Assembly (NCBI GenBank): GCA_014874485.1
Contig: JADBJK010000015.1
Coordinates: 55,955-119,954 of the forward strand
Direction: 5' to 3'
From: Chloroflexota bacterium
GTDB taxonomy: Bacteria > Chloroflexota > Anaerolineae > DTLA01
Length of the DNA stretch: 64,000 nt
A program made the position numbers and the translations under genes. Shown here in pieces: positions 2,300-31,266 of this stretch (the stretch's first letter is position 1; each line of letters opens with the position of its first letter). Under the pieces are notes generated by a model, which was not told where the DNA came from, ran no database searches, and worked only from the letters and a program-made list of their open reading frames with translations.

Positions 2300-2301
2300 G
2301 C

Positions 2302-6481: not shown

Positions 6482-6528
6482 CGCGGGCGCGATTCTACGC
6501 AACCAACGGAAAGGAGGCGACTTGCCCG

Positions 6529-8244
6529 ATGGCAACCGTCAACATCAAAATCAACGGACAACAGATTCAGGCGCGGGCGGGGGCCACGCTTCTGGAGGCG
6601 GCAAAAGAGGCGGGGATTGACATCCCCACCCTGTGCCACCACCCTGCCCTTGCCAACATCGGCGCGTGCCGCGTTTGCCTGGTGGAAGTGGCGAAGCAGC
6701 GCACACTCCAGCCCGCCTGCACCTTCCCCATCTCCGAGGGCATGGAAGTGGAGACCGAGTCGCCCAAGGCGGTGGAGGCGCGCAAGTTCGTCCTGGAGAT
6801 GCTCTTCTCCGAGCGCAATCACTACTGCATGTACTGCGAGATGAGCGGCGACTGCGAACTCCAGGCGCTGGCGTACCGCTACGGCCTGGACCACTGGACC
6901 TATCCCTCGCCGCACGCCAAGATGCCGGTGGACGGCACGCGCAAGTACTTCATCATGGATCACAACCGCTGCATCCTGTGCCGGCGCTGCATCCGTGCGT
7001 GCTCGGACCTGGTGGCGAACCACACGCTGGGCGTGCGCTTCCGCGGCGCCAAGACCATGATCAGCGCCGACATGGACGTGCCCTTCGGCGACTCCACGTG
7101 CGTGTCGTGCGGCACCTGCCTGCAGGTCTGCCCCACGGGCGCGCTGGTGGACCGCAAGAGCGCTTACATGGGCCGCGAGGTGCACGTAGAGCACACGGCC
7201 AGCGCATGCACGTTCTGCGCCGTGGGGTGCGGGACCAGCGTCGTTACACGCGCCGGGCATGTCCTGCGCGTGGAGGGCGACTGGGACGCACCCAACCAGG
7301 GCGTGCTGTGCGTAGCGGGGCGCTTTGAACCGCTCTACGACCGCCGCGAGCGGATCACCTCGCCCATGTTGCGCAAGGGCAACGGCCTTGTGCCCGTCTC
7401 CTGGGACGAGGCGCTGGGCGCCATCGCCGCCAAGGCGAAGGGCAACAGCGGCAAGAAGGCCGCGGCCTACGTTACCGGCAAGGCTCTCAACGATACGCTG
7501 GGCGAGTTCCTGAGGGTGTTCCAGGGGAAGATGCAGGCCACCGTTGGCACCGTGGAGCCGACGCTGGCGGACCTGGACCTGCCGGTGGGCGGCTCGCTGG
7601 CCGATGTGGACGCGGCCGACTGCATCCTGGTGGCGGGCGGCGATCCGCTGGCCACGCACCGCGTGCTCGGCTACCGCGTCAAGCGCGCCCTGGACAAAGG
7701 CGCTCGGCTGCTGGTGGTTACGGACAAGCCCAACGGCATGCTGCCCCTCGCGCACCGGAAGTTCGGCATGGCCCAGTTGGACGAGGCCGTGAAGGTCTGC
7801 CAGGGCAGCGCCGCGCCGGTGGTCATCTACGGTGGCGACCTGGACAAGGCCAGCGCCCGGAAACTGGCGACGCTGGTGGGCAAGGCCCGCTTCATCCCGC
7901 TGTTCCCCGCCAGCAACGGCTACCGAGCCAGGGAACTGGGTCTGAAGAACGGCTTCAGCGCCAATGGGCTCAAGGTGCTCTACCTGCTGTTGGGCGACGC
8001 AGAACTGCCCGACGAGGCCGTGAAGGAAGCGCGGCGGGCGGCATTCCTCGTCGTCCACGCCGCCTACAAGTCCGCGGCCACCGACGTGGCCGATGTGGTG
8101 CTGCCGGCTCCGCTGTGGTACGAGCAGGAGGGGAGTTTCACCGCCCTGGACGGCAGGAAAGTCGCCGTCAAGCCGGCGGTCGCCGCGCCCGAGGGTATGC
8201 TTGCCGAGGCCGCTGTCCTTGCCCGGCTGGCAGAGCGCCTGTAG
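6529..8244 (+). CDS. hoxU: HoxU-like iron-sulfur diaphorase subunit (NuoG 75-kDa homologue, extended C-terminus)
   Basis: The 571-aa product has an N-terminal 2Fe-2S ferredoxin fold (CHHPALANIGACRVC) and NuoG-type 4Fe-4S motifs (CILCRRCIRAC, CVSCGTCLQVCPTGA). It is longer than canonical HoxU because of a NuoG-like C-terminal domain. Confidence 0.75.
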   Translation: MATVNIKINGQQIQARAGATLLEAAKEAGIDIPTLCHHPALANIGACRVCLVEVAKQRTLQPACTFPISEGMEVETESPKAVEARKFVLEMLFSERNHYCMYCEMSGDCELQALAYRYGLDHWTYPSPHAKMPVDGTRKYFIMDHNRCILCRRCIRACSDLVANHTLGVRFRGAKTMISADMDVPFGDSTCVSCGTCLQVCPTGALVDRKSAYMGREVHVEHTASACTFCAVGCGTSVVTRAGHVLRVEGDWDAPNQGVLCVAGRFEPLYDRRERITSPMLRKGNGLVPVSWDEALGAIAAKAKGNSGKKAAAYVTGKALNDTLGEFLRVFQGKMQATVGTVEPTLADLDLPVGGSLADVDAADCILVAGGDPLATHRVLGYRVKRALDKGARLLVVTDKPNGMLPLAHRKFGMAQLDEAVKVCQGSAAPVVIYGGDLDKASARKLATLVGKARFIPLFPASNGYRARELGLKNGFSANGLKVLYLLLGDAELPDEAVKEARRAAFLVVHAAYKSAATDVADVVLPAPLWYEQEGSFTALDGRKVAVKPAVAAPEGMLAEAAVLARLAERL

Positions 8245-8278
8245 CAGCCGTGTAACGAGGATAAAAGGAGGATAATCC

Positions 8279-8818
8279 ATGGCGAAAGTCAAGGTTGCAA
8301 CAGATTGGCTGGCCGCGTGCGCAGGGTGCCACATGTCCGTGCTGGACATGGACGAGCGGCTCGTCCAACTGCTGGACAAGATAGAACTCACGTCCACGCC
8401 CATCACCGACCTGAAGCACCCACCGAAGGAGGGCGTTACGGTCGGGATTCTCACGGGCGCTATCTCCAACACGACCAACATTGAGGTCGCCAAGCAGATG
8501 CGCGAGCGCTGCCAGATTCTCATCGCGCTGGGCGACTGCGCGGTGTTCGGCGGCATCGTAACCATGCGCAACTTCTTTGACATGAACGAGGCCCTGAAAC
8601 GCGCCTACGTGGAGACCGAAAGCACCGTGGACGGCAAAATCCCCTGCTCGGAGGAACTGGGGAGGCCGGTGCGGGTGTGCGCGGTCAACCAGGTGGTCAA
8701 GGTGGACATCCACATTCCGGGATGCCCGCCGTCGCCGGACGCCATCTACTACGCCCTGTCCGAGTTGTTGGAGGGCCGCATCCCCGTCCTGACCGGCGAC
8801 AACCTGAAGTATGACTGA
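8279..8818 (+). CDS. hoxY: [NiFe] hydrogenase small subunit, NAD-reducing type (HoxY)
   Basis: The 179-aa product carries CAGCHMS, GDCAVFGG and GCPP motifs for the proximal 4Fe-4S cluster. The RBS is AAGGAGGATAA. Confidence 0.85.
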   Translation: MAKVKVATDWLAACAGCHMSVLDMDERLVQLLDKIELTSTPITDLKHPPKEGVTVGILTGAISNTTNIEVAKQMRERCQILIALGDCAVFGGIVTMRNFFDMNEALKRAYVETESTVDGKIPCSEELGRPVRVCAVNQVVKVDIHIPGCPPSPDAIYYALSELLEGRIPVLTGDNLKYD

Positions 8819-8868
8819 CGGTCATGCCCGCCAGGTCCAGGATTTGACCCTAGACAAGGAGCGCAACC

Positions 8869-10290
8869 ATGCAAAAGATCACGATAGAACCCGTAACGCG
8901 AATTGAGGGCCACGCCAAGGTTACCATCCACCTGAACGACGAGGGCAAGGTGGAGCGGGCCTTCTTCCACGTGAACGAGTGGCGTGGGTTTGAGAAGTTC
9001 AGCGAGGGGCGGCCCTTCTTTGAGATGGTTCAGATCACCCCGCGCATCTGCGGCATTTGCCCGGTGAGCCATCACCTGGCGTCGGCCAAGGCGTGCGACC
9101 GCGTCGCGGGGGTCGAACCGCCCAGGACGGCCAAACTCCTGCGCGAACTGATGCACATGGGGCAGTTCATCCAGTCCCACTCCATGCACTTCTTTGAACT
9201 GGCGGGGCCAGACCTGCTGCTGGGGTTTGACGCGGACCCCGCCATCCGCAACGTGGTGGGCATCGTCCAGGCGAACCCCGACCTGGCGCTGAAGGCGGTG
9301 CGCCTGCGCGGGTTCGGCCAGGACATCATCAAGCGCCTGGGCGGCAAGCGCGTGCACCCGGTCTTCGCCGTGCCCGGCGGCGTCAACGCGCCCCTGTCCG
9401 TCAAGGACCGCGACGCCATCCTGAGCCAGGTGGACGAGATGACCGAGGTCATCAAGACCGGCATCGCCATCGGCAAGCAGTGGTACGAGGCCAACATGGA
9501 CCTCGTCAACCAGTTCGCCGTGTTCCCCTCGTCCTACATGGGGCTGGTGGACGAGGAGGGCGGCCTGCAACTGTACGAAGGCAAGGTGCGGCTGGTGGAC
9601 AAGGACGGCCGGAAACTGGAGGAGTTTGACGCCCAGGACTACCTGACGTACATCGGCGAGCACGTGGAAGACTGGTCGTACCTGAAGTTCCCCTTCTACC
9701 GCAAGATGGGCTGGCCCAACGGCACGTACCGCGTTGGCCCGCTGGGGCGGCTGAACGCTGCTACCAAGATCAACACGCCCATGGCCAACGAGGAGTTCAA
9801 GGTCTGGAAGTCCATCAACGGCGGCAAGCCGGTGGAAGGCACCCTGTGGTTCCACTACGCCCGCCTGATAGAGGACCTGTACGCCATGGAGCGCGTCCGC
9901 GAGATTCTGGAGGACCCCGACATCCTGTCCACGGACATCGTCGCGGATTCCACGGGGTTCGTGGGCCAGGGCGTCGGGTGCGTGGAGGCTCCGCGCGGGA
10001 CTCTGTTCCACCACTACCAGACCGACGCCAACGGCATGCTGACCAAGGTCAACCTCATCGTCGCCACAGGCCACAACAACTGGGCGATGAGCAAGTCGGT
10101 GGAGATGGTGGCCAAGGCGTTCGTGGACGGCACCAAGTTGACGGAAGGGATGCTGAACCGCGTGGAGGCGGCCATCCGCGCCCACGACCCGTGCCTGTCG
10201 TGCTCTACCCACGCCGTCGGGGCCATGCCCATCGTGATTGAGATGTACGGCCCGGATGGCGCACTGGTGCACCGCCTGACCCGCGACTAG
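8869..10290 (+). CDS. hoxH: [NiFe] hydrogenase large subunit, NAD-reducing type (HoxH)
   Basis: The N-terminal Ni-binding motifs RIEGH and RICGICPVSH are present. The C-terminal DPCLSCSTH is followed by a 24-aa extension, the substrate for endopeptidase cleavage. Confidence 0.9.
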   Translation: MQKITIEPVTRIEGHAKVTIHLNDEGKVERAFFHVNEWRGFEKFSEGRPFFEMVQITPRICGICPVSHHLASAKACDRVAGVEPPRTAKLLRELMHMGQFIQSHSMHFFELAGPDLLLGFDADPAIRNVVGIVQANPDLALKAVRLRGFGQDIIKRLGGKRVHPVFAVPGGVNAPLSVKDRDAILSQVDEMTEVIKTGIAIGKQWYEANMDLVNQFAVFPSSYMGLVDEEGGLQLYEGKVRLVDKDGRKLEEFDAQDYLTYIGEHVEDWSYLKFPFYRKMGWPNGTYRVGPLGRLNAATKINTPMANEEFKVWKSINGGKPVEGTLWFHYARLIEDLYAMERVREILEDPDILSTDIVADSTGFVGQGVGCVEAPRGTLFHHYQTDANGMLTKVNLIVATGHNNWAMSKSVEMVAKAFVDGTKLTEGMLNRVEAAIRAHDPCLSCSTHAVGAMPIVIEMYGPDGALVHRLTRD

Positions 10291-10317
10291 AACTTTACCA
10301 CAGAGAAAATTGGCTGC

Positions 10318-10469
10318 TGTCATTGCGAGCGAAGCGAAGCAATCTCACGCCCTATCTGTCATGCTGAGCGAAGCGAAGCATCTCGGTTGGCGAGATTCTT
10401 CGCGGCTGGGCCGCTCAGAATGACAATCTACCGGGATTGCTTCGGGCGCTGCGCGCCCTCGCAATGACA
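10318..10469. mobile_element. MITE-like element, copy 1 (152 bp; 12-bp terminal inverted repeats TGTCATTGCGAG / CTCGCAATGACA)
   Basis: The termini are a perfect inverted pair. Inside is a nested inverted pair GTCATGCTGAG...CTCAGAATGAC, and the same architecture recurs at four or more other loci in this window. Confidence 0.7.
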
Positions 10470-10521
10470 AACTATCAAGAATCCCTGTGGCAAAATACGA
10501 GGCGGATAGCCGAGGAATCCC

Positions 10522-10563
10522 GCAGACCTCCGAGGGCCTTCCCGACCTCGGAGGTCTGCTTTT
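10522..10563 (+). terminator. Rho-independent terminator downstream of hoxH
   Basis: A 14-bp perfect stem (GCAGACCTCCGAGG...CCTCGGAGGTCTGC) is followed by a CTTTT tract. Confidence 0.6.
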
Positions 10564-10589
10564 GACGCCCTGGCCCCGTGGGATACAAT
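10562..10589 (+). promoter_or_regulatory. Sigma70-like promoter for the hoxW-hyp operon (TTGACG-N16-TACAAT)
   Basis: The hexamers lie immediately after the terminator T-tract, 58 nt upstream of hoxW. Confidence 0.4.
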
Positions 10590-10646
10590 AGCCAGGACAA
10601 CGCAAAGACGCGCTGAGACGTTCACGGGCGCGCTGGGACTGGACGG

Positions 10647-11132
10647 ATGAGACGGACCCTGGTCATCGGATACGGGAACCCCTACCGCCGCGACGACGGC
10701 GTGGCGTTGCACGTCGCCAACCTCTTGCGGGCGGAGCAGGGGCTGCGACCTCTGGCCCTGGACGAAGACGGCCTGGATGCGTGCGGCCATCCCCTGGACA
10801 CGGTGGTGCTCCACCAGTTGCTGCCCGAAATCGCGCCCATGCTGGCCGACTACGACCTGGTCGTGTTCGTGGATGCCCACACCGGCGTAATACCGGATGA
10901 CGTCCGCGTGCTGCCCGTGCAGGAGGAGTACGGCTTCCAGGCGGTTACCCATCACATGAGCCCGGGCATGATGCTGGCGCTGGCGCGGGCAGCGCGGGGT
11001 CGGGCGCCGGATGCCGCGCTGGTCTCCATTCGGGGCGAGGACTTTGATTTCGGCGAGGGCCTGTCGGCGGGGTGCAAGGCTCGCGCGGATGCGGCCGCCC
11101 GCGCCATCCTGGACATGGCCGGCAGGGAGTAG
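10647..11132 (+). CDS. hoxW: Hydrogenase maturation endopeptidase (HoxW/HycI family)
   Basis: The product has the GYGNPYRRDDGVALHV signature (GxGNxxxxDDGxG) and is 161 aa long. Confidence 0.85.
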   Translation: MRRTLVIGYGNPYRRDDGVALHVANLLRAEQGLRPLALDEDGLDACGHPLDTVVLHQLLPEIAPMLADYDLVVFVDAHTGVIPDDVRVLPVQEEYGFQAVTHHMSPGMMLALARAARGRAPDAALVSIRGEDFDFGEGLSAGCKARADAAARAILDMAGRE

Positions 11133-11138
11133 GTCGCC

Positions 11139-11480
11139 GTGCACGAACTGCCCGTTACCGAGCAAATCCTCAAGGTCGTGCTGGATCACGCGCGCAAGGC
11201 GGAGGCGCACCGCGTCGTGCACGTCAACCTCGTCATCGGCGACCTGACCACGTTCGTGGACGAGAGCATCCAATTCTACTTTGATTTCCTGTCGCGCGGG
11301 ACCGAGGCGGAGGGCGCGACCCTGCACATCCGCCGCATTCCGGCCCGCGTGCGGTGTCATGCCTGCGGCGGCGAGTTCGCGCCCGACGGCGTGGACTGGC
11401 GCTGCCCCCACTGCGGCGGCCTGGGCGGGGAAGTGCTCGCGGGCCGCGAGTCGTACATAGAGAGCATTGAGGTGGAATAG
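11139..11480 (+). CDS. hypA: Hydrogenase nickel insertion protein HypA
   Basis: The N-terminal MHE motif and the Zn site CHACGG...CPHCGG are present; the product is 113 aa. Confidence 0.85.
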   Translation: MHELPVTEQILKVVLDHARKAEAHRVVHVNLVIGDLTTFVDESIQFYFDFLSRGTEAEGATLHIRRIPARVRCHACGGEFAPDGVDWRCPHCGGLGGEVLAGRESYIESIEVE

Positions 11481-11485
11481 CCCCC

Positions 11486-12151
11486 ATGAAGAAAGTGGAA
11501 GTCGTAACCGACATCATGAGTGCCAACGACCAGATCGCCCAGGAGAACGCCGAAACCCTCCGGGCGCATGGCATCCTCACGGTGAACCTGATGGCATCGC
11601 CCGGGGCCGGCAAGACCAGCCTCATCCTGGAGACCGCGCGGGCGCTTGACGGCCGCCTGCGCCTGGGCGTGATTGAGGGCGACGTGGCCTCGCGCATTGA
11701 CGCGGACAAGGTCGCCGCCGCGGGGATTCCCGTGGTGCAGATCAACACCGGCGGCGCGTGCCACCTGGACGCGCCCATGATCCGCCAGGCGCTCCGCGCG
11801 CTCCCGCTGGACGAGATAGACCTGCTCATCGTGGAAAACGTCGGCAACCTCATCTGCCCGGTGGAGTTTCGCCTGGGCGAGACGCTGCGCGTCATGATCG
11901 CCAGCGTGCCCGAAGGCCACGACAAGCCCTACAAGTACCCGGGCATCTTCACGGCAGTGGAGGCCGTCGTCATCAACAAGATGGATTTGGCCCCCTACGT
12001 GGACTTTGACCTGGGCGCGCTGCACGAGGCCATACGGGGCATGAACCCGCGCGCCGAAATCTTTGAGGTCTCCTGCCGCACGGGCGAAGGCATTGGCCGA
12101 TGGGCCGAATGGCTCTGGGCGCAGTGGCAGGCGTATCGGCCGGCGAAGTAG
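11486..12151 (+). CDS. hypB: Hydrogenase nickel incorporation GTPase HypB
   Basis: The product has a P-loop (ASPGAGKTS) and a CH metal motif (GGACHLD), and is 221 aa long. Confidence 0.85.
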   Translation: MKKVEVVTDIMSANDQIAQENAETLRAHGILTVNLMASPGAGKTSLILETARALDGRLRLGVIEGDVASRIDADKVAAAGIPVVQINTGGACHLDAPMIRQALRALPLDEIDLLIVENVGNLICPVEFRLGETLRVMIASVPEGHDKPYKYPGIFTAVEAVVINKMDLAPYVDFDLGALHEAIRGMNPRAEIFEVSCRTGEGIGRWAEWLWAQWQAYRPAK

Positions 12152-12172
12152 GGGGAGAGGGCGGTCCCGGAC

Positions 12173-14560
12173 ATGGCCTCGGTTGTCGCCAATCGGTTCA
12201 AGGTAACCGGCGTGGTGCAGGGGGTGGGTTTCCGCCCCTTTGTGTACGGCCTGGCGGTGGGGCTGGGGCTGCGCGGCTGGGTCATCAACACGTCGTCGGG
12301 CGTGGTGATTGAGGTGGAAGGCCCGCCCGATGCCCTGGATGCCTTCGCGCGCGACCTGGTGGCGAAGGCCCCGCCCGTGGCGCGCATAGAGACCGTGCAG
12401 CGGGAGGAGATTCCGCCCAACGGCTGGGAGCGGTTTGAAATCCGCGAGAGCCGGGCCGAGGCTGGGTACGTGCTCATCTCGCCGGACATCGCCACCTGCC
12501 CCGAATGCCTGCGCGAACTGTTTGATCCCAACGACCGCCGCTACCGCTATCCGTTCATCAACTGCACCAACTGCGGGCCGCGTTTCACCATCATCGCCGA
12601 CGTGCCTTACGACCGGCCCCTGACCACCATGGCCGCGTTCCAAATGTGCCCGGAATGCCAGGCCGAGTACGATGACCCGCTGAACCGCCGATTCCACGCG
12701 CAGCCCAACGCCTGCCCCGTGTGCGGGCCGCGGGTGTGGCTTGTGCCCGCTTCGGCGCAGGACGCCGAGGCGCTGACCCCGCCCGCGGGCGACCCGGCCA
12801 ACGCCGAGGTGCTCGCCGAGGCAGCGCGCTTGCTGCGGGGAGGCGCCATCCTCGCCATCAAGGGCCTGGGCGGGTTCCACCTGGCCTGCGATGCGACCAA
12901 CCCCGACGCAGTGCGCACGCTGCGGGAACGCAAGCGCCGCCCGGCGAAGCCCTTGGCGGTGATGATGGCCTCGCTGGACGAGGTGCGCCAGCATTGCGAG
13001 ATCACGCCCGACGAGGAGGCGCTCCTGACCTCGCGCCAGTGCCCCATCGTCCTGCTGGAGTGGAAGCGCGACTCCACAGTTGTGGAGGAGGTGGCGCCGA
13101 ACAACCGCTACCTGGGCGTGATGCTCCCCTACACGCCGCTGCACCATATTCTGCTCCGCGACGCCGGGCGGCCGCTGGTCATGACGAGCGGCAACCTGTC
13201 GGAGGAGCCTATCGCGCAGGACAACGAGGAGGCCTGGCGTCGGCTGCGCGGCCTGGCCGATTGGTTTCTGCTCCACAACCGGGCCATCTACGCCCGCTAC
13301 GATGACAGCGTCTGGTTTGTGCCGCGCGTCCCCGACGGCAAGGCGGGTGCCGAGTCGGTGCCCCAGCCGCTGCGCCGCTCGCGGGGCTACGCGCCGTATC
13401 CCGTGCGCCTGCCCTTCCGCGCCCGCACGGTGCTGGCCACCGGCCCGGAACTCAAGAACACCTTCTGCATCACCCGCGACGAGCATGCCTTCGTTAGCCC
13501 CCACATCGGCGACATGGAGAACCTGGAGACGCTGGAGCACTACGAGACGGCCATGGGCCTCTACGAGCGGCTGTTCCGCCTGCGGCCTGATGCGATAGCC
13601 TGCGACCTGCACCCCGACTACCTGGCGACGCGCTACGCCCACGAGCGGGCCGAGCGGGAGCGCCTGCCCCTCATCGGCGTGCAGCACCACCACGCCCACA
13701 TCGCGGCGTGCATGGTGGACAACGGTATCACCGAGCCGGTCATCGGCGTGGCCCTGGACGGCACGGGGTACGGCCTGGACGGGCGAATCTGGGGCGGCGA
13801 GTGGCTGGTCGCCGACCTGCGCGGGTTCCGCCGCGCCGCGTGGCTGGAGCCGCTCCCGCTCCCCGGCGGCGACGCGGGCATCCGCAACCCGTGCCGCATC
13901 GCGTATGCGTACCTGCATGCGCTGTTCGGCGAAGTCCCCGCGCTGCCCTTCCTGGCGCAGATGGACGAGGCCGAAATCGCCGCCGTGCAGCGGCAGGTGG
14001 AGCGCGGCCTGAACACCGTTCTGACCACGTCCTGCGGCCGGCTGTTTGACGCCGTCGCAGCGATGGCCGGCGGGCGGGGCCGCGTTACCTACGAGGCGCA
14101 GGCGGCCATTGAGATGGAGATGGCATCGGAGGGCGACGAGGGCGACCCCTACGGGTACTTCTTCCGCTGGGCGGAGCCGCTCGCCTGGGGGAACACGGAT
14201 GCCTTGCCCCCGCTGGCCTGCGCCTTTGAGGTCGCCCTGAAGCCGCTGCTGGCGGGCGTCGTGCGCGATGTCCAGGCCGGGCGGATGCTGGGCGAAGTGG
14301 GCGGGCGCTTCCACCGCACGCTGGCGAACATGATCGCCGACCTGTGCTGCATGATCGCGCAGGGCACCGGCCTCGCGACGGTGGCCCTGTCGGGCGGGTG
14401 CTTCCAGAACCGCCTGCTGCTGGAACAGTCGGTGGGCGAACTCCGACGGCGCGGGCTGCGCGTGCTGCTGCACCGCCAGGTTCCGGCCAACGACGGCGGC
14501 GTGTCGCTGGGCCAGGCGGCCATCGGCCACTTTGCCCTTGAGGAGGGGCGGGCGCGATGA
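12173..14560 (+). CDS. hypF: Carbamoyltransferase HypF
   Basis: It contains an acylphosphatase domain (VQGVGFRPFVY), two CxxC...CxxC zinc fingers, and YrdC and Kae1-like domains, for 795 aa in total. Confidence 0.9.
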   Translation: MASVVANRFKVTGVVQGVGFRPFVYGLAVGLGLRGWVINTSSGVVIEVEGPPDALDAFARDLVAKAPPVARIETVQREEIPPNGWERFEIRESRAEAGYVLISPDIATCPECLRELFDPNDRRYRYPFINCTNCGPRFTIIADVPYDRPLTTMAAFQMCPECQAEYDDPLNRRFHAQPNACPVCGPRVWLVPASAQDAEALTPPAGDPANAEVLAEAARLLRGGAILAIKGLGGFHLACDATNPDAVRTLRERKRRPAKPLAVMMASLDEVRQHCEITPDEEALLTSRQCPIVLLEWKRDSTVVEEVAPNNRYLGVMLPYTPLHHILLRDAGRPLVMTSGNLSEEPIAQDNEEAWRRLRGLADWFLLHNRAIYARYDDSVWFVPRVPDGKAGAESVPQPLRRSRGYAPYPVRLPFRARTVLATGPELKNTFCITRDEHAFVSPHIGDMENLETLEHYETAMGLYERLFRLRPDAIACDLHPDYLATRYAHERAERERLPLIGVQHHHAHIAACMVDNGITEPVIGVALDGTGYGLDGRIWGGEWLVADLRGFRRAAWLEPLPLPGGDAGIRNPCRIAYAYLHALFGEVPALPFLAQMDEAEIAAVQRQVERGLNTVLTTSCGRLFDAVAAMAGGRGRVTYEAQAAIEMEMASEGDEGDPYGYFFRWAEPLAWGNTDALPPLACAFEVALKPLLAGVVRDVQAGRMLGEVGGRFHRTLANMIADLCCMIAQGTGLATVALSGGCFQNRLLLEQSVGELRRRGLRVLLHRQVPANDGGVSLGQAAIGHFALEEGRAR

Positions 14561-15654
14561 AGTTCATAGACGAGTTCCGCGACCCTCGGTTGGCCCGCTC
14601 GCTGGTGGAGCGCATCCGCCAGCGCGCGCGCAAGCCCATGCGCCTGATGGAGTTCTGCGGCGGACACACCCACGCCATCCTGCGATTCGGCATTCGCCAG
14701 GCGCTGCCGCCGACGGTGGAGATGCTGTCGGGGCCCGGGTGCCCGGTGTGCGTTACCGCCGCCGCGGACCTGGACCGGGCCATCGCCATGGCGGGTGTGC
14801 CGGGAGTCATCCTGGCCACCTTCGGCGACATGATCCGCGTGCCGGGGAGCCGCGAGAGCCTGCAGCAGGCCAAAGCGCGGGGCGCGGACATCCGCATCGT
14901 GTACTCGCCGCTGGACGCCGTGCGGCTGGCGGAGCAGAACCCGTCGCGGCCCGTGATCTTCCTGGGCGTGGGGTTTGAGACGACGGCCCCGGGCGTGGCG
15001 GCTTCCGTCCTGGACGCGCACGCGCGCGGGGTTGGCAACTACTACGTACTGTGCCTGCACAAACTCACGCCGCCCGCTACCCGCGCCATCTTGGATTCGG
15101 GCGAGGTCAACCTGTCGGGCGTCCTGGGGCCGGGACACGTTACCACCGTCATCGGGACGAAGGCGTGGGAGTTCCTGCCGCGCGAGTACGGCGTGCCCAT
15201 CGCCATCGCGGGATTTGAGCCGCTGGACATCCTGCGGGGCATCTCCCTGCTGGTGGAGCGGATTGCGGAGGGCGAGGCGCGCGTGGACAATGCCTATTCC
15301 CGCAGCGTGCTCCCGGAAGGGAATCGGGCGGCCCAGGACATGATGGCCCGCGTGTTTGAGGTGGCCGACGCCGAGTGGCGCGGGCTGGGGACGATACCGG
15401 CCAGCGGCCTGTGCATACGGCCGGAGTTCCAGGCCCACGACGCGGCGCGCGCGTTTCCGGTGGACGTGCCGCCGTCGCGGGAACCGCCAGGATGCCGCTG
15501 TGGGGACGTCTTGCGGGGCGTCTTGGCTCCGCCTTCGTGCCCGTTGTTCGGCAGAGCGTGCACGCCGGAGCACCCCGTCGGCCCGTGCATGGTGTCGGCC
15601 GAGGGGGCCTGCGCCGCCTACTATCAGTTTGGAGATGCGGGACATGAAGGATGA
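14557..15654 (+). CDS. hypD: Hydrogenase maturation factor HypD
   Basis: The motifs EFCGGHTHAI and GPGCPVCV are present. The start overlaps the hypF stop (ATGA). Confidence 0.85.
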   Translation: MKFIDEFRDPRLARSLVERIRQRARKPMRLMEFCGGHTHAILRFGIRQALPPTVEMLSGPGCPVCVTAAADLDRAIAMAGVPGVILATFGDMIRVPGSRESLQQAKARGADIRIVYSPLDAVRLAEQNPSRPVIFLGVGFETTAPGVAASVLDAHARGVGNYYVLCLHKLTPPATRAILDSGEVNLSGVLGPGHVTTVIGTKAWEFLPREYGVPIAIAGFEPLDILRGISLLVERIAEGEARVDNAYSRSVLPEGNRAAQDMMARVFEVADAEWRGLGTIPASGLCIRPEFQAHDAARAFPVDVPPSREPPGCRCGDVLRGVLAPPSCPLFGRACTPEHPVGPCMVSAEGACAAYYQFGDAGHEG

Positions 15655-16651
15655 GGCCATCCTGCTCGCCCACGGCAGCGGCGGGCGGCTGACGCACGAA
15701 CTGATCCGCGACCTGTTCCTGAGCGAGTTGTCCAATCCGTTCCTGGACGCGCTGGGCGACGCCGCTGTCCTGCCGCCGCAGAGCGGCCGCCTGGCCCTGA
15801 CCACCGACTCCTACGTGGTTCGGCCGGTCTTCTTCCCTGGCGGGGACATCGGCAAACTGGCCGTGTGCGGCACGGTCAACGACCTGAGCATGGTGGGCGC
15901 GCGCCCGCTTTTCCTGACCATCGGGTTCATCCTGGAGGAAGGGCTGCCCTTCGCCGACCTGCGGCGCATCGTGCGCTCGGCGGCGCAGACGGCCCGCGAG
16001 GCTGGCGTCCAGATTGTGGCCGGCGACACGAAGGTGGTGGACCGGGGCAGCGCCGACCAGGTGTTCATCAACACGGCGGGCGTGGGCCTCATTCCGGAGG
16101 GGGTCTCCCTGTCGCCGAGCGCCATCCGTCCGGGCGACGTCGTCCTCGTGTCGGGGACCGTGGGCGACCACGGGATTGCCGTCATGGCCCAGCGGGAAGG
16201 GTTGGGGCTGAGCACGTCGCTGGCCAGCGACTGCGCCCCCCTGAACGGTCTGGCGCAGGCCGTGGTGGCGTGCGGCGGCGTGCGGGTCATGCGCGACCCC
16301 ACGCGCGGCGGCCTGGCGACCACGCTGGTGGAACTGGCGCAGGCAGGCGGCGTGGGCCTAGAGATTGACGAGAGCGCCGTGCCCGTCAAGGATGCCGTGC
16401 GGGGCGCGTGCGAACTCCTGGGCCTGGACCCGCTGTACGTCGCCAACGAGGGCAAGTTGGTGGCGGTGGTGGCAGCCGAGGCGGCGGACGCTGCCCTCGC
16501 CGCGATGCAGGCGCACCCGCTGGGCCGCGATGCCCGCATCATCGGGCGCGCCACCGATGGGCATCCGGGGCGGGTCGTCCTGAAGACGCTGCTGGGCGTG
16601 TCCAGGGTTGTAGAGATGCTGACGGGCGAGCAGTTGCCCAGGATATGCTGA
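15635..16651 (+). CDS. hypE: Hydrogenase maturation factor HypE (start at internal ATG 15635 or 15644; the upstream part of the track ORF is an artefact overlapping hypD)
   Basis: The product is an AIR-synthase-like fold (MKDEAILLAHGSGG...) that overlaps the hypD stop. Confidence 0.8.
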   Translation: MRDMKDEAILLAHGSGGRLTHELIRDLFLSELSNPFLDALGDAAVLPPQSGRLALTTDSYVVRPVFFPGGDIGKLAVCGTVNDLSMVGARPLFLTIGFILEEGLPFADLRRIVRSAAQTAREAGVQIVAGDTKVVDRGSADQVFINTAGVGLIPEGVSLSPSAIRPGDVVLVSGTVGDHGIAVMAQREGLGLSTSLASDCAPLNGLAQAVVACGGVRVMRDPTRGGLATTLVELAQAGGVGLEIDESAVPVKDAVRGACELLGLDPLYVANEGKLVAVVAAEAADAALAAMQAHPLGRDARIIGRATDGHPGRVVLKTLLGVSRVVEMLTGEQLPRIC

Positions 16652-16890: not shown

Positions 16891-17358
16891 TTGAACGACA
16901 AACTCCGTGAAGTCCTGCAAGCGCCGGTAACCGGCAAAGGAGACCTCATCCCGCTGCTCCAAAAGGCTCAGGAGGCCGAGGGATACGTCTCCGAGGAGGC
17001 CATCTACGCCATCGCCGAGAAACTGCGCATTCCCGCCAGCGAGGTGTTCGGCGTGTTGTCCTTCTACGCGCAGTTTCGGCTGCGTCCCATGGGCAAGCAC
17101 AACGTCAAGATATGCCGGGGCACGGCCTGCCACGTGCGCGGCTCGCCCCTTATCGTTACCGCTGTGGAGAGCGAACTGAAACTGGGCGGCGGCGAGGATA
17201 CGACTTCGGATGGCTTGTTCACGGTGGAGAAAATCGCCTGCTTCGGGGCGTGCAGCCTGGCGCCGGTGATGGTGGTGAACGGGCGCACCTACGGGAACCT
17301 GAGTCCGGACAAGGCGCGCCGCCTGATTCGCAAGATCGCGGAGGAAGAACATGTATAG
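16891..17358 (+). CDS. fdsG: NAD-dependent formate dehydrogenase gamma subunit (NuoE-like [2Fe-2S])
   Basis: The 155-aa product has the CRGTACHVRG...CFGACSLAP motif. It is a paralogue of hoxE. Confidence 0.75.
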   Translation: MNDKLREVLQAPVTGKGDLIPLLQKAQEAEGYVSEEAIYAIAEKLRIPASEVFGVLSFYAQFRLRPMGKHNVKICRGTACHVRGSPLIVTAVESELKLGGGEDTTSDGLFTVEKIACFGACSLAPVMVVNGRTYGNLSPDKARRLIRKIAEEEHV

Positions 17359-19210
17359 CGACTACGCCTCTTTGCGCGCCTGGGCCGAGGGCGAAGTGCA
17401 ACGCACCCGTCCGCCCGACCGAACCCGCATCCTCATCGGGCTGGGCACGTGCGGCATCGCCGCCGGCGGGCTGGACGTCCTGACAGCCCTGCGCGAGAAA
17501 CTGGCCGATATGCGCGTCCCTGCCGAGATCGTTCCCGTGGGCTGCATCGGCATGTGCTTTGAAGAGCCGCTGGTGGACATCGTAAGACCGGGCGAGCCTC
17601 GCATCTGCTACGCCAAGGTAACCCCCAAGAGCGTCCCGACCATTCTGGAAGAGCACCTACTCCACAACAACGTGCGCAAGGATTTGGCCTTCGCGGTCAT
17701 CGGCGACGAGCCTTACGACGGTATCCCATCGTGGAAGCAGTTGCCCTTCTTCGCCACCCAGCGACGAACGGTGCTGCGCAATTGCGGGTTCATTGACCCC
17801 GAATCGGTCGCCGAGTACATCGTCCACGATGGGTACGCCGCCCTGGCGAAGGCACTGTTTGAGATGACGCCCGAGTCCGTGATTGAGGAAGTGAAGCGGT
17901 CGGGGTTGCGCGGCAGGGGCGGCGCGGGGTTCCCAACGGGCATGAAGTGGGAATTCTGCCGAAAGTCCCCTGGCGACCACAAGTACATCATCTGCAACGC
18001 GGACGAGGGCGACCCTGGTGCCTTCATGAACCGTAGCGTCCTGGAGGGCGACCCCCACAGCGTGCTGGAGGGACTGCTCATCGCCGCCTACGCCATCGGT
18101 GCCGACCACGGCTACATCTACTGCCGCGCCGAGTATCCCCTGGCCATCGTGCGGCTGCGCAAGGCGCTGGAGCAGGCGCGGGCGCTGGGACTCCTGGGCG
18201 AGCACATCTTCGGCACCGACTTCAGTTTTGACGTAACCATCAAGGAGGGCGCGGGCGCGTTCGTCTGCGGCGAGGAGACCGCGCTCATGGCGTCCATAGA
18301 GGGCAAGCGCGGGATGCCCCGACCCCGCCCGCCGTTCCCCGCGCAGAAGGGCCTCTGGGGCCAGCCCACCAACATCAACAACGTGGAGACGCTGAACAAC
18401 ATCCCGCCCATCATCCTCAACGGCGCTGATTGGTTCGCTGCCGTGGGCACCGAGAAGAGCAAGGGCACCAAGACCTTCGCCCTGACAGGTAAAATCGCAA
18501 ACTCGGGACTGATAGAAGTCCCGCTCGGTATGCCGCTGCGCGAGATTATCTTTGAAATCGGCGGCGGCATCCCCAAAGGCAAGAAGTTCAAGGCCGCGCA
18601 GACAGGTGGTCCCTCAGGTGGGTGTATTCCGAGTTCCATGTTGGACATCCCGGTGGACTATGAGTCGCTAACCGCGGCCGGTTCCATCATGGGCTCCGGC
18701 GGGCTCGTCGTCATGGACGAGGACAACTGCATGGTTGACGTCGCGCGGTTCTTCCTCTCCTTCACCCAGAGCGAATCGTGCGGCAAATGCATTCCCTGCC
18801 GACTGGGCACCAAGCGCATGCTGGAGATACTAGAACGCATCACCCGAGGTGAGGGTCAGGAAGGCGACATAGAGTTGCTGCTGGAACTGTGCGAGACGGT
18901 GAAACTCGGGTCGCTGTGCGGGCTGGGCCAGACGGCTCCCAACCCCGTGTTGACCACCATCCGCTACTTCCGCGACGAGTACGAGGCCCATATCAAAGAG
19001 CACCGCTGCCCGGCCAAGGTGTGCAAGGCGCTCATCACCTACCGCATCTCCGAGGAGAAGTGCACCGGCTGCACCCTGTGCGCTCGCAACTGCCCCGTGG
19101 GTGCCATCAGCGGCGAGCGAAAGAAGGTGCACGTGATTGACCCGGCCGTCTGCACGCGCTGCGACACCTGTCGCCAGGTGTGCAACTTTGACGCGGTCCT
19201 CGTGGAATAG
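17351..19210 (+). CDS. fdsB: NAD-dependent formate dehydrogenase beta subunit (NuoF-like, FMN/NAD-binding, N-terminal 2Fe-2S and C-terminal 2x[4Fe-4S])
   Basis: The 619-aa product has the motifs GRGGAGFPTGMKWEF, CGKCIPCR and C-terminal CTGCTLCARNCP...CTRCDTCRQVC. Confidence 0.8.
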   Translation: MYSDYASLRAWAEGEVQRTRPPDRTRILIGLGTCGIAAGGLDVLTALREKLADMRVPAEIVPVGCIGMCFEEPLVDIVRPGEPRICYAKVTPKSVPTILEEHLLHNNVRKDLAFAVIGDEPYDGIPSWKQLPFFATQRRTVLRNCGFIDPESVAEYIVHDGYAALAKALFEMTPESVIEEVKRSGLRGRGGAGFPTGMKWEFCRKSPGDHKYIICNADEGDPGAFMNRSVLEGDPHSVLEGLLIAAYAIGADHGYIYCRAEYPLAIVRLRKALEQARALGLLGEHIFGTDFSFDVTIKEGAGAFVCGEETALMASIEGKRGMPRPRPPFPAQKGLWGQPTNINNVETLNNIPPIILNGADWFAAVGTEKSKGTKTFALTGKIANSGLIEVPLGMPLREIIFEIGGGIPKGKKFKAAQTGGPSGGCIPSSMLDIPVDYESLTAAGSIMGSGGLVVMDEDNCMVDVARFFLSFTQSESCGKCIPCRLGTKRMLEILERITRGEGQEGDIELLLELCETVKLGSLCGLGQTAPNPVLTTIRYFRDEYEAHIKEHRCPAKVCKALITYRISEEKCTGCTLCARNCPVGAISGERKKVHVIDPAVCTRCDTCRQVCNFDAVLVE

Positions 19211-19241
19211 CCACGGTTCTCGGATGGAAGGAGACGCAGAC

Positions 19242-21953
19242 ATGACCATTACGCTGACCATAGACGGCAAGACGGTGAGTGTGAAAGAGGGGGCCACGGT
19301 CCTGGATGCCGCCAAGGAAGCGGGCGTGTACATCCCCACCCTGTGCGCCGATGAGGACCTGCTGCCCTTTGGCGCGTGCCGCCTGTGCCTGGTAGAGGTG
19401 CAAGGCGACCGCAGGCCCATGCTCCCCTCGTGCACCACGCCTGCCACCGACGGGATGGTGGTGCGCACCTCCAGCCCGATTATTGACAAGACGCGGCGCA
19501 ACGTCGTGGAACTCTTGCTGTCCGACCACCCGGAGGACTGCTTGACCTGCCCGCAGAACAACCGCTGCGAACTCCAGCGCGTGGCGGCCTACGTGGGCGT
19601 CCGCACCAACCGCTTCCGCGGCGAGAAGCACGCCTACCCGATTGACGATTCCAACCCGTTCTACCGCCGCGATTTGGACCGCTGCATCCTGTGCGGCAAG
19701 TGCGTGCGCACCTGCGACGAGATTCAGCAACTGGGCGCCATCAACTTCGCCTACCGCGGCTTCCGCACCAAGATCGCGACCGTGCTGGACCGGCCGGTGG
19801 CGACTTCCACCTGCGAGTCGTGTGGGCAGTGCGTGGACAAGTGCCCGGTGGGCGCGCTGTACCCGGAGGCATGGCTACGGTACGGCCTGCCCGCCGCCGA
19901 GACGAAGACCATCTGCGCCTATTGCGGCGTGGGGTGTGGCCTGATCCTCCAGACGCGCGGCAACACGGTGGTGGGCGTCCGCGGCGACCCCGACAACCCC
20001 GTGAACCACGGCCGCACCTGCGTCAAGGGGCGGTTCGGATACGAGTTCATCAACCACCCAGACCGCCTGAAGAAGCCGCTCATCAAGAAAGACGGGGCCT
20101 TCGTGGAGGCCACCTGGGACGAGGCGCTTGACCTCGTGGCCCAGCGGCTGGCGTCGGTGGTGCGCGAACACGGCCCCGACGCGGTGGCACTGCTCACATC
20201 CGCAAAGTGCACCAACGAGGAGAACTACCTGCTCCAGAAATACGCAAGGGGGGTGCTGGGGACGCACAATGTGGACCATTGTGCGCGTCTCTGACACAGC
20301 AGCACCGTGACCGGTCTGGTCACAGCATTCGGCTCCGGGGCCATGACGAACTCCATTGAGGACATGAAGGAGGCCAAAGCCTTCCTCATCATCGGCTCCA
20401 ATACCACCGAGCAGCACCCCATCATCGGGCTAAACATCCGCAAGGCAGTGCGCGAGGGCGCGCGGCTCATCGTAGTGGACCCGCGCAGCACAGACCTGGC
20501 GAGGCGCGCCGACATCCACCTGTCCATTGATCCGGGGGGCAACATCGCCCTGCTCAACGGCCTGGCGCACATCATCCTGAAAGAGGGCTGGGAAGACAAG
20601 GAGTTCATCGCCTCCCGCACCGAGGGGTTTGACGAGTGGCGGGCGGTGGTGGAGAAATACACGCCCGAACGGGTCAGCGAGATCACCGGCGTTCCGGTGG
20701 AGCGCCTGTACGAGGCGGCGCGCCTGTACGCCACGACGAAGCCCGCCGCGCTGGTGTACGCCATGGGCGTAACCCAGCACACGTCGGGCCACCAGGGTGT
20801 GCAGGCGTGCGCCAACCTGCAAATGCTCACGGGGAACATGGGCATCCGTGGGGGTGGGGTCAACCCGTTGCGCGGCCAGAACAACGTGCAGGGCGCGTGC
20901 GACATGGGCTGCCTGCCCGACTTCTTCCCCGGCTACCAGCGCGTTGCCGACGACAAGGCCCGCGAGAAGTTCGCCCAGGCGTGGGGCGCTCGCTTCGGCG
21001 ACAAGCCCGGCCTCACCATCGTGGAGATGCTCAACGCCGCCGAGCAGGGGCGGCTCAAGGCGCTCTACGTTACCGGCGAGAACCCGGTCATGAGCGACCC
21101 CGACAGCCAGCATGTGGTCCACTGCCTGGAGAGCCTGGACTTCCTCGTGGTGCAGGACATCTTCCTCTCCGAGACGGCCCGCCTGGCCGACGTGGTGCTG
21201 CCCGCCGCGTCCTTCGCCGAGAAGGCCGGGACGTTCACCAACACCGAGCGGCGCGTCCAGTTGATTCGCCCCGCCATTGACCCGCCCGGCGAGGCGCGCC
21301 CCGATTGGGAGATCGTGGCCGACCTGGCCCGGCGCACGCTGAAGGCCCTCGGCCACACGCCCGACGGGCCATACGCTGGCTGGGATTACACATCCCCCGC
21401 CCAGATCATGGACGAAGCCGCGGCGCTGACGCCCATCTACGGGGGCATCCGCCACAGCCGCCTGGAGAACGGCGGAATCCAGTGGCCGTGCCCGTCTCCC
21501 GACCATCCGGGCACGCCCATCCTGCACGTCGGCAAGTTCTCGCGCGGTCTTGGAAAGTTCAATCCGGTGGAGTACATCCCACCCGCCGAGACGCCGGACG
21601 ACGCCTACCCGCTCATCCTCACGACCGGCCGCAGGCTGGAGCACTATCACACGGGCACCATGACGCGCCGCGTGGCCGGGCTGAACAAACTGGCCCCGGA
21701 GGAGCGCGTGGAGATCAACACAGAAGACGCGGCCCGCCTGGGCATCGCCGACGGCGACTGGGTCGTCGTGGAATCCAGGCGCGGCCGGGTGAAGGTGCGG
21801 GCGGCAGTGGGGCAGCGGTGCAAGCCGGGCGTGGTCTTCATGACGTTCCACTTCGCCGAGGCCCTGGGCAACGTGCTGACCCACACAGCGCTAGATCCCG
21901 TGTCCAAGATTCCGGAACTCAAAGTGGCCGCCGTTCGCGTGCTGCGGGCATAG
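19242..21953 (+). CDS. fdhA: Formate dehydrogenase alpha subunit, selenocysteine-containing (in-frame TGA at 20292..20294); molybdopterin/tungstopterin enzyme with an N-terminal NuoG-like Fe-S domain
   Basis: Track ORFs 19137..20294 and 20307..21953 are in the same frame and separated only by TGA. The flanking sequence VDHCARL-U-HSSTVTGL aligns residue-for-residue with E. coli FdhF VDHQARV-U-HGPSVAGL. The downstream region matches FdhF closely (RTEGFDEW, GVNPLRGQNNVQGACDMG). The RBS GGAAGGAG lies before ATG 19242. Confidence 0.85.
20307..20323 (+). other. SECIS-like hairpin 12 nt downstream of the fdhA UGA (GTGACC-GGTCT-GGTCAC)
   Basis: A perfect 6-bp stem with a GGUCU apical loop resembles the GGUC loop of the E. 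coli fdhF SECIS. Its position relative to the UGA is canonical. Confidence 0.5.
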
Positions 21954-29452: not shown

Positions 29453-30082
29453 TGTCATTGCGAGGGGCGAAGCCCCGAAGCAATCCCTGGGACGTGAGAT
29501 TGCTTCGCTTCGCTCGCAATGACGGAGAAGGCACTTGCGACGCACCTCCGAGGTGCGTCGCAAGTGGGCCGACTGGATTGCTTCGCTTCGCTCGCAATGA
29601 CAGCAAAGGGGTTGTCATTGCGAGGGGCGCAGCCCCGAAGCAATCCCCGGGGCGCGAGATGGCTTCGCTTCGCTCGCAATGACGGAGAATGCACGTGCGA
29701 CGCACCTCCGAGGTGCGTCGCACGTGGGCCGACTGGATTGCTTCGCTTCGCTCGCAATGACAGCAAAGGGGTTGTCATTGCGAGGGGCGCAGCCCCGAAG
29801 CAATCCCCGGGGCGCGAGATGGCTTCGCTTCGCTCGCAATGACGGAGAATGCACGTGCGACGCACCTCCGAGGTGCGTCGCACGTGGGCCGACTGGATTG
29901 CTTCGCTTCGCTCGCAATGACAGCAAAGGGGTTGTCATTGCGAGGGGCGCAGCCCCGAAGCAATCCCCGGGGTGCGAGATTGCTTCGCTTCGCTCGCAAT
30001 GACGGAGAAGACACTTGCGACGCACCTCCGAGGTGCGTCGCAAGTGGGCCGACTGGATTGCTTCGCTTCGCTCGCAATGACA
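29453..30082. repeat. Tandem array of about four 160-bp composite units built from MITE-family modules (each unit has TGTCATTGCGAG termini and a 13-bp-stem hairpin CTTGCGACGCACCTC-CGAG-GTGCGTCGCAAG)
   Basis: The unit period is exactly 160 bp (29610/29770/29930). Units are near-identical and there are no unique spacers. Confidence 0.8.
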
Positions 30083-30102
30083 GGTGCCGCGCTGCATCCC
30101 CA

Positions 30103-31161
30103 TCACGGTTCCTCCAGCGCCGCCAGTTCCGTCAGCCTGGCCCAATCGTAGTTCTCGCGCCACAGGAAATAGCCGCCGAGGACGAAGATGGGGAGGTACA
30201 CGATGGCGTGAAGCACAATCCCGCACGCCAGGGCCAGCGCGGGGTCAACCCCGTACAGCCCCAGCGTGAGCACGCACAGGTAATGGAAAACGCCGATGCG
30301 CCCAGGCGACGACGGCACGATGATGCCGATGTTCAGGATGGCCAGCAGGAGCGGGGCCGCCGTCCACGGAAGGCGCAGGCCAAACGCCCAGAAGACGAGG
30401 GCGTTGGTGAGAATCATCAGCGCCCAGTTGCCCGCCGACCAGCACCAGAGCACCAGGTTCATGCGCAGGCTCTTGAGCGGGCGCAGGCTCAGCGCGGCCC
30501 GCTGCACCGCGCCCATGACCCCCAGCCGCCCCAGCCACGACTCGGGCCCCACCATCCGCACCACCCAGGCGGGCAGGCGGCCCTCCCACCGCGAGAGCGC
30601 CGTCATCGCCGCCAGGAGCACCACCATCCCGCCGCTCACGAAGAGCGACGACCCCTTGACCCACGACGGGAAGGGCATGAACACCGATGTTACCAGCACC
30701 ACCAGGAGCAGCATGAGGCTGTCCAGCGCCTTCTCCAGCACGATGGTGCCCAGCACATACGCGCCGCTGACGGATTCTATCCGCGCCAGCAGGTACGCCC
30801 GCGCGATCTCGCCCAGGCGCGCGGGAAGCGCCGCGTTGACCGCCTGGCCGATGTAGATGACGCTCATCAGTTTGCCGAGGCGCCGCTCCCTGTGTTCGGG
30901 GTAGAACAGGGCCTTCCAGCGGGCGGCTTTCACGGCCTGCGTCGCCAGGAACGCCGCCAGCGCCGCGCCCACCAGCCACGCATTCGCCTGGCGCAGGGCT
31001 TCCCACACCTCGCGCAGGTGCACCTGTCTGAAGGCGAGCCACAGGAACAGCACGCTCAACAGCGTGCCTGCGATGAGGCCCAGGTTCCGTCGCGTGCGGT
31101 TCGGGGATGCGGTGCGAATGGGTACCTCCTCGGCGCGCCCCGCGTCCTGGGGCGAGCGCAA
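30103..31161 (-). CDS. UPF0104/LPG-synthase-TM (flippase-like) integral membrane protein
   Basis: It has 7-8 predicted TM helices and the conserved GRIGVFHY region. Confidence 0.55.
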   Translation of the reverse strand: MRSPQDAGRAEEVPIRTASPNRTRRNLGLIAGTLLSVLFLWLAFRQVHLREVWEALRQANAWLVGAALAAFLATQAVKAARWKALFYPEHRERRLGKLMSVIYIGQAVNAALPARLGEIARAYLLARIESVSGAYVLGTIVLEKALDSLMLLLVVLVTSVFMPFPSWVKGSSLFVSGGMVVLLAAMTALSRWEGRLPAWVVRMVGPESWLGRLGVMGAVQRAALSLRPLKSLRMNLVLWCWSAGNWALMILTNALVFWAFGLRLPWTAAPLLLAILNIGIIVPSSPGRIGVFHYLCVLTLGLYGVDPALALACGIVLHAIVYLPIFVLGGYFLWRENYDWARLTELAALEEP

Positions 31162-31266
31162 CGGAGCCCGATTGTACCCGCGGGCCAGGCGCGTGTCAAA
31201 AGCACGCCGATTTGACAGAAGGCCCCGCCTGCGATAACCTCACCTACCACCTGGAGGCAGGAGTCC

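Follow-up and report, generated by a model that had tools for sequence, protein, structure and literature searches.

A selenocysteine-type formate dehydrogenase alpha subunit gene divided in annotation by an in-frame UGA in a Chloroflexota genome

We analyzed a 64,000-nucleotide (nt) stretch of the genome of a Chloroflexota bacterium (GCA_014874485.1, contig JADBJK010000015.1), hereafter the window, and conclude with high confidence that positions 19242-21953 of its forward strand are a single gene, fdhA, encoding a selenocysteine (Sec)-containing formate dehydrogenase (FDH) alpha subunit. The locus combines one continuous, constrained reading frame with a UGA codon at the catalytic Sec/Cys column and a covarying hairpin of the selenocysteine insertion sequence (SECIS) type that is tied to the UGA state. 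These findings support an earlier interpretation of the locus made from its sequence (the original prediction), whose testable parts were all confirmed and whose coordinates and lengths proved correct throughout. The gene and its elements are as follows.

19242-21953, forward strand: fdhA, alpha subunit of formate dehydrogenase; 903 residues with Sec351, followed by the stop codon (translation, TIGR01591, Pfam)
19228-19233, forward strand: Shine-Dalgarno-like AAGGAG, 8 nt 5′ of the ATG at 19242 (read from the sequence)
19914-20021, forward strand: codons of the four [4Fe-4S] cysteines of the catalytic module, C225, C228, C232 and C260, with K262 just after (FdhF alignment; Pfam Molybdop_Fe4S4 covers residues 220-272)
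20292-20294, forward strand: in-frame UGA (codon 351), predicted to encode the catalytic selenocysteine (alignment with FdhF and homologues)
20307-20323, forward strand: SECIS-type hairpin with stem GUGACC/GGUCAC and apical loop GGUCU (folding, FdhF comparison, comparative pairing)
20289-20347, forward strand: extent of a sub-threshold match to Rfam SECIS_3 (RF01989), 32.3 bits against a gathering threshold of 63, over the full model (1-59)

The list of open reading frames (ORFs) and the sequence agree that two ORFs in the same frame, 19137-20294 (385 amino acids (aa), ending in TGA) and 20307-21953 (548 aa), are parted by the TGA at 20292, as originally described. Positions 19242-21953 comprise 904 codons with codon 351 as the sole internal stop, and translation yields 903 residues including Sec. 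The local reading around the TGA is CGT CTC TGA CAC AGC AGC ACC GTG ACC GGT CTG GTC ACA. The ATG at 19242 also begins the 350-aa N-terminal fragment in gene calls on related contigs, and the N-terminus MTITLTIDG agrees with the homologue consensus.

Domain analysis revealed NuoG-like Fe-S domains at the N-terminus fused to a Mo/W-bis-pterin catalytic module (Fer2_4, NADH-G_4Fe-4S_3, Fer4_Nqo3, Molybdop_Fe4S4, Molybdopterin and Molydop_binding). With the UGA read as Cys, the product scored 888.7 bits against TIGR01591 (formate dehydrogenase alpha), above the curated equivalog cut-off of 666.25 and over the whole model (1-672 of 672). Its top solved relatives are FdsA proteins (9wxb_B, 827 bits; 6tg9_A, 819 bits), and E. 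coli FdhF scores 566 bits. The claim that gene callers had split one 903-aa gene holds on several counts: the Molybdopterin domain (PF00384) spans the TGA, matching profile positions 1-81 on its 5′ side and 97-352 on its 3′ side, the G+C content at third codon positions (GC3) is that of real genes in both halves (0.86 and 0.90), and the ratio of nonsynonymous to synonymous substitution (dN/dS) is 0.07-0.09 on both sides.

Gene callers have thus wrongly cut fdhA in two, a textbook case that is nothing new in kind. No bacterial selenoprotein is more widespread than FdhA (PMC1794560, PMC13188914), which was found in 89% of Sec-using bacteria (PMC1794560); since the present gene is one more Sec-type member of that family, conceptually nothing changes. 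The practical point concerns annotation. Public collections list fdhA as two fragments (350 aa and 536-548 aa), and metabolic reconstructions of these Anaerolineae metagenome-assembled genomes (MAGs) could therefore miss or misjudge both a functional formate dehydrogenase and a selenium requirement.

Pairwise alignment with E. coli FdhF, whose gene sequence was fetched for comparison, placed UGA351 in the Sec140 column, as the original prediction had proposed from the flanking residues (43.4% identity over 666 residues). The surrounding catalytic residues follow the same correspondence: His141 aligns with H352, Arg333 with R544 and Lys44 with K262, and the [4Fe-4S] ligands C8, C11, C15 and C42 align with C225, C228, C232 and C260. 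At the Sec site itself, CCARVUHGPSVAGL in FdhF faces HCARLUHSSTVTGL in the window, U standing for the UGA-encoded position. This column is Cys in 38 of 38 full-length homologues in the alignment. The motif UHxP, listed for TIGR01553-type FdhA (PMC13188914), is absent from the window, which reads U-H-S-S. Proline at +3 occurs in just 15 of the 47 Sec-type loci of the FdsA-like subfamily, where HSS is commonest (19/47); UHxP is an FDH-N-type motif and not a feature of this subfamily.

The GGUCU-looped hairpin that the original prediction had placed 12 nt past the TGA was recovered as six Watson-Crick pairs closing a 5-nt loop, with a free energy of -9.5 kcal/mol. Counted from the U of the UGA, the stem comprises pairs 16-32 to 21-27 and the loop positions 22-26, and GGUCU occupies nt 22-26 in both the window and E. 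coli fdhF. The bacterial bSECIS model describes an upper stem of 4-16 bp capped by an apical loop of 3-9 nt whose first two positions include a G (pattern G[G|U]); this loop lies 16-37 nt from the UGA, and the minimum free energy (MFE) is -7.5 kcal/mol or lower (PMC13188914). All four descriptors fit the window hairpin: its 6-bp stem carries a 5-nt loop that opens with GG, 18 nt separate the loop from the UGA, and the free energy is -9.5 kcal/mol. SECIS hairpins have also been described as 6-8 bp stems whose loop has a conserved G some 20 nt past the UGA (PMC4605307); G23 of the window lies 20 nt past the A of the UGA. A 6-bp hairpin with a GGTCT loop occurs only once on both strands of the window.

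Single-sequence folding was uninformative here, and we therefore turned to comparative analysis. A one-genome-per-species scan gave, among the matches listed, 80 homologous loci at 48-56% identity; the catalytic codon was TGA in 47 distinct sequences, from Chloroflexota, Bacillota, Desulfobacterota and other phyla, and TGC or TGT in 25. The six-pair stem forms in 99.3% of cells across the 47 TGA-type loci, a level that none of 500 shuffles reached, whereas in the 25 Cys-type loci it forms in 60.0% of cells, which is shuffle level (reached by 133 of 500). De novo prediction with RNAalifold returned exactly the six pairs for the TGA-type loci and no structure for the Cys-type loci. The loop is GGUCU in 45 of the 47 TGA-type loci, as against nine different sequences among the 25 Cys-type loci.

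Covariation in the TGA-type loci was equally clear. Double-sided changes occur in four pairs (24 cells), pair 18-30 appearing as GC, CG, AU and UA and pair 21-27 as CG and AU, and slid-partner controls gave just 19-63% pairing. This comparison is decisive for a SECIS-type element: the hairpin is conserved, covaries, and goes with the TGA-type loci and not with the distant Cys-type homologues. The encoded peptide carries a matching signature. TGA-type proteins prefer Ala or Thr at residue +10 (VAGLAA, VAGLAT, VTGLVT), which supplies C32 to pair with G16, and distant Cys-type proteins have Gln, Arg or Lys there (VAGLAQ, VAGLAR). The RNA element in this way visibly constrains the protein sequence.

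Several observations weigh against the reading of 19242-21953 as a selenoprotein gene. The two nearest Cys-type relatives examined retain the hairpin, with 6/6 and 5/6 pairs. The window holds no selA, selB, selD or tRNA-Sec in its 64 kb. Generic hairpin criteria are permissive at its G+C content of 66%, and 22% of all its TGA triplets have a 6-bp hairpin with G in the first two loop positions downstream. Four of the six pairs already follow from the peptide V-T-G-L-V-T, which gives the stem alone a chance probability of about 0.21. In folding and comparison with SECIS models, the check suggested with the original prediction, the hairpin fits all four bSECIS descriptors, but the 63 nt after the UGA fold no more stably than shuffles (z = 0.73) into an MFE structure without the hairpin, and the SECIS_3 match of 32.3 bits is below the gathering threshold of 63, which places the element outside RF01989.

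Set beside these points, shorter folded stretches (45-54 nt) do recover the hairpin, and the SECIS_3 match, found in a permissive local scan, has E = 6e-6 to 1e-5 for 151-251 nt searched; the element probably works like the SECIS_3 family although it is not filed as a member. Simulation with synonymous codons at the codon usage of the window gave probabilities of 0.21 for the stem, 0.054 for GGUCU and 0.011 for both, GGU being a rare Gly codon there (5.9%). Because Cys-type relatives keep the hairpin, it is no proof of recoding by itself; the UGA, the hairpin and the constraint on the frame together are.

At the Rfam gathering threshold, the window yielded two tRNAs only, with no SECIS and no tRNA-Sec. 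Both are tRNA-Ala, in line with the earlier statement that neither is tRNA-Sec. Pfam scans found no SelA or SelB domains in the remaining ORFs of the window, and tblastn with E. coli SelA, SelB and SelD found nothing in it; the same search across all fetched loci found one selD only, in an unrelated deltaproteobacterial MAG (L036). Contig walking with the genes at the ends of the window revealed no sel genes in about 3 kb beyond each end, nor in the flanks of relatives, and tRNA scans of 48 Sec-type loci found no tRNA-Sec. One candidate for selD, the ORF at 15356-16651, was rejected: it is HypE (463.8 bits, against 46.8 for SelD with a SelD cut-off of 125) and the sole AIR-synthase-family ORF of the window. 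The genes selA, selB, selC and selD are presumably located elsewhere in the genome, and tRNA(Sec) is documented in Chloroflexi, where an 8/4 acceptor/T-arm form has been reported (PMC5389517).

Under the selenoprotein interpretation, a translating ribosome arriving at UGA351 would insert selenocysteine in place of terminating, with SelB predicted to bind the hairpin. Sec351, His352 and Arg544 would then form the formate-oxidizing or CO2-reducing site at a bis-pterin cofactor whose metal is expected to be Mo or W. If selenium or the Sec machinery were lacking, a truncated product of 350 residues would result.

Among alternative explanations, we first weighed decoding of the UGA through the same SECIS/SelB route as cysteine or another residue, for example via a non-canonical tRNA(Cys) accepted by SelB. 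The evidence from the locus bears on neither the tRNA nor the way it is charged, and Cys at position 351 works in close relatives. Such decoding would, however, be a rare variant set against ordinary Sec decoding in FdhA (PMC1794560), and no SepRS/SepCysS-like gene or matching tRNA gene lies in the window. We regard it as highly improbable.

A nonsense mutation in a pseudogene, or a sequencing or assembly error for TGC or TGT, would be suggested by the fact that ORF callers treat the locus as two genes and that a close relative has TGT at codon 351, one substitution away. The TGA is nonetheless authentic. The identical TGA and hairpin occur in an NCBI MAG (GCA_037446815.1, locus L001; 93.7% aa and 89.4% nt identity), in the Logan assemblies of SRR31923789, SRR8613699 and SRR31923785, and in JGI 3300031463 / ENA ERZ27247220 (94.4% aa identity). 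Because the same TGA recurs in at least six independently assembled data sets, sequencing error, which the original prediction had named as a finding that would overturn it, is excluded; the 47 distinct homologous loci from many phyla share it as well. Selection has also acted on both sides of the codon: in comparison with L001 and the Cys-type locus L087, codons 1-350 give a dN/dS of 0.067-0.080 and codons 352-903 one of 0.088-0.092, the downstream value of 0.09 being reached between lineages 11% diverged at the nucleotide level. A stop falling exactly at the catalytic column with a conserved SECIS next to it further opposes decay or error, and this explanation is effectively refuted.

A true split appears very unlikely. 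It would have a 350-residue Fe-S protein ending at the UGA and a separate pterin protein of 536-548 residues starting at GTG 20307 or ATG 20343, the two assembling without residue 351. Both in-frame starts do lie shortly past the TGA, and public annotations list the pieces separately. Yet neither candidate start is preceded by a purine-rich ribosome-binding site, and the 12-16 codons between the TGA and these starts are conserved in amino acid sequence, with only synonymous differences from L001 across codons 352-367 (from the TGA to the first internal ATG). The catalytic Sec/Cys would be missing from the pieces, and His352 as well from the one that starts at the ATG; the break would fall inside one Pfam domain, and every Cys-type homologue is a single chain.

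Genome-wide reassignment of UGA to sense (genetic code 4 or 25), for which the in-frame TGA itself is the whole case, is refuted, since TGA terminates 16 of 49 GC3-selected ORFs (one being the FDH N-terminal fragment) and the TGA at 20292 is the only one in the 64 kb with coding signal on both sides. The same scan for in-frame TGA with two-sided coding signal found no further selenoprotein genes in the window. Collectively, the shared TGA, GC3, dN/dS and the use of TGA as a stop leave sequencing error, pseudogene, true split and genome-wide reassignment all poorly supported.

The selenoprotein gene has a very close Cys-type counterpart. A full-length 903-aa Cys member (P0129) falls in the same 90%-identity protein cluster as the window protein; its DNA (L087 5401-8112, L088 5277-7988) shares 92.6% aa and 88.5% nt identity with the window gene and has TGT in place of TGA. 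In L087 and L088 a change of GUC to GCC breaks pair 19-29 and leaves the GGUCU loop intact. The neighbor-joining tree has the topology (window_U,(L001_U,L087_C)). A Cys allele nested with Sec types and accompanied by a relic hairpin points to recent Sec-to-Cys conversion, and L087/L088 look like such a case, with a SECIS relic; Zhang et al. reported the same pattern in FdhA (PMC1794560).

Retention of the hairpin extends to the next Cys clade out (P0001-P0005). L097 (P0002) has a perfect GUGACC-GGUCU-GGUCAC after UGU and L096 (P0011) has 5/6 pairs, both at 63-65% aa identity. Either several independent recent Sec losses have occurred, or the hairpin is kept for another reason. Where Sec- and Cys-type alleles are very close and the Cys type retains a relic SECIS, the two offer a natural pair in which Sec loss can be studied.

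Two genes immediately upstream encode probable partners of FdhA.

16891-17358, forward strand: NuoE/HydC-like [2Fe-2S] subunit (BfuC type, 155 aa), probable FDH partner (PF01257, E = 4.5e-47)
17351-19210, forward strand: NuoF/HydB-like flavoprotein (BfuB type, 619 aa), probable FDH partner (Pfam Complex1_51K, NADH_4Fe-4S, C-terminal 2x[4Fe-4S])

The same three-gene order, NuoE-like, NuoF-like and fdhA, occurs in the relatives L001, L082, L087 and L098. The flavoprotein matches the structurally characterized, bifurcating HydB of the A. mobile NiFe hydrogenase (7t2r_B) over its full length at 882 bits, versus 397-442 bits for the non-bifurcating FdsB, and has both C-terminal CxxCxxCxxxC motifs. 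In its thioredoxin-like [2Fe-2S] motif (residues 28-70), GLGTCG stands against CRGTGC in 7t2r_B; three of four cysteines align, and C86 lies nearby. Type 1 Fdh-Bfu enzymes comprise BfuC, a BfuB with extra Fe-S clusters (B2-B5) that are absent from non-bifurcating NuoF/FdsB homologues, and a BfuA subunit that itself bears the pterin site (PMC9304861, Schut et al.), and by its sequence the FDH trio resembles this layout. FdhA therefore probably works with the two upstream products as an NAD(P)(H)-linked enzyme, possibly one that performs flavin-based electron bifurcation. As one N-terminal [2Fe-2S] cysteine is unaligned and no activity is known, we treat bifurcation as a hypothesis.

Upstream of the FDH genes, a NiFe-Bfu-type hydrogenase cluster occupies 1829-10290 (forward strand), with NuoE-like, HATPase, small 2Fe-2S, BfuB-like and NuoG-like proteins and the small and large NiFe subunits. 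Compared with A. mobile 7t2r_D, the large subunit reaches 598 bits. A NiFeSe type was considered for it and judged unlikely, the gene being an uninterrupted 473-aa ORF with an end-to-end match to 7t2r_D. The BfuB-like flavoprotein of the cluster (3374-6481, forward strand; 1035 aa) matches the bifurcating HydB (7t2r_B) over residues 5-543. A GltD/NfnA-like FAD/NADP(H) module (residues 545-1031), which resembles NfnA 9n5u_A and 9bov_A, stands in place of its C-terminal 2x[4Fe-4S] ferredoxin domain. In solved Bfu enzymes, by contrast, a GltD/NfnA-like module sits on the A subunit.

Between hydrogenase and FDH operon (about 10290-16651, forward strand) lie hypB, hypF, hypD and hypE; in L098 (1-9952), hypA and a 164-aa ORF stand between the hydrogenase large-subunit gene and hypB. 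The order hydrogenase, hyp genes, NuoE/NuoF/fdhA(Sec) and proC is conserved in this second lineage (L098; JGI 3300031463 / ENA ERZ27247220). It is not conserved in L001 and L087, where the FDH trio lies among glycosyltransferase genes.

This gene neighborhood, which may be of specialist interest, suggests that a bifurcating FDH is associated with an unusual NiFe-Bfu hydrogenase. Taking all parts together, we tentatively propose, while doubting that every part will hold, that the Sec-FdhA is the pterin-bearing BfuA of a three-subunit flavin-based bifurcating FDH in an uncultured Anaerolineae lineage. This enzyme would be genetically linked with a NiFe-Bfu-type hydrogenase in which a GltD/NfnA-like NADP(H) module has taken the place of the ferredoxin domain of the B subunit, and the lineage would be in active Sec-to-Cys turnover, as exemplified by the relative at 92.6% identity with UGU and a decaying SECIS. 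If true, FDH and hydrogenase would form a soluble module for formate/H2 interconversion through NAD(P)H and ferredoxin.

Other parts of the window were also surveyed. The two tRNA-Ala genes lie at 45564-45639 and 45832-45905 (forward strand; anticodons CGC and GGC), 190 nt apart, and upstream of them the opposite strand encodes a copper-type P-type ATPase (42087-44483) together with an HMA-domain protein and a CsoR-like metal-sensitive repressor. Four long ORFs have no Pfam match at E <= 1e-5: 809-1678 and 10428-11411 on the reverse strand, and 29839-31215 and 61146-62042 on the forward strand. By GC3 and gene calls on related contigs, the two reverse-strand ORFs are probably shadow ORFs opposite real genes; a PHP-domain gene is called in the L089 stretch corresponding to window positions 782-1807 (forward strand). 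The ORF at 61146-62042 is called as a 298-aa gene without a domain in several assemblies.

Among known systems, E. coli FdhF (b4079) shares with the window protein the catalytic module, the UGA in the same column and the position of GGUCU. It differs in lacking the approximately 220 extra N-terminal residues that carry the NuoG-like [2Fe-2S] and [4Fe-4S] domains, and in its partners, which belong to the hydrogenase-3 complex and are NuoE/NuoF-like in the window. The SECIS of the window is of the fdhF kind but differs in register: the E. coli element has a bulged U17 and a 6-nt loop, and the window has a perfect 6-bp stem with a 5-nt loop. Compared with Rfam SECIS_3 (RF01989), the window sequence aligns with model positions 1-59 from 3 nt before the UGA and matches the apical helix and the GUC loop core, whereas most of the model's lower helix does not pair in it.

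Over its whole length (residues 3-901, 819-827 bits), the closest solved counterparts are the FdsA proteins of Rhodobacter capsulatus and Cupriavidus necator FdsABG (6tg9, 6vw7, 9wxb), with the same fusion of a NuoG-like N-terminus to a pterin module and the same trio of NuoE-, NuoF- and FdhA-like genes. The window flavoprotein differs from that of FdsABG in that it is of the longer HydB/BfuB type and carries a 2x[4Fe-4S] domain at its C-terminus. The active site differs as well, the solved FdsA enzymes presumably carrying Cys where the window gene has UGA/Sec. The predicted Type 1 Fdh-Bfu of Carboxydothermus hydrogenoformans (PMC9304861) resembles the window trio in joining a BfuC-like and BfuB-like pair to a pterin-bearing BfuA-like subunit, whereas the purified W/Se Fdh-Bfu of Gottschalkia acidurici (PMC9304861) carries its pterin on a separate subunit.

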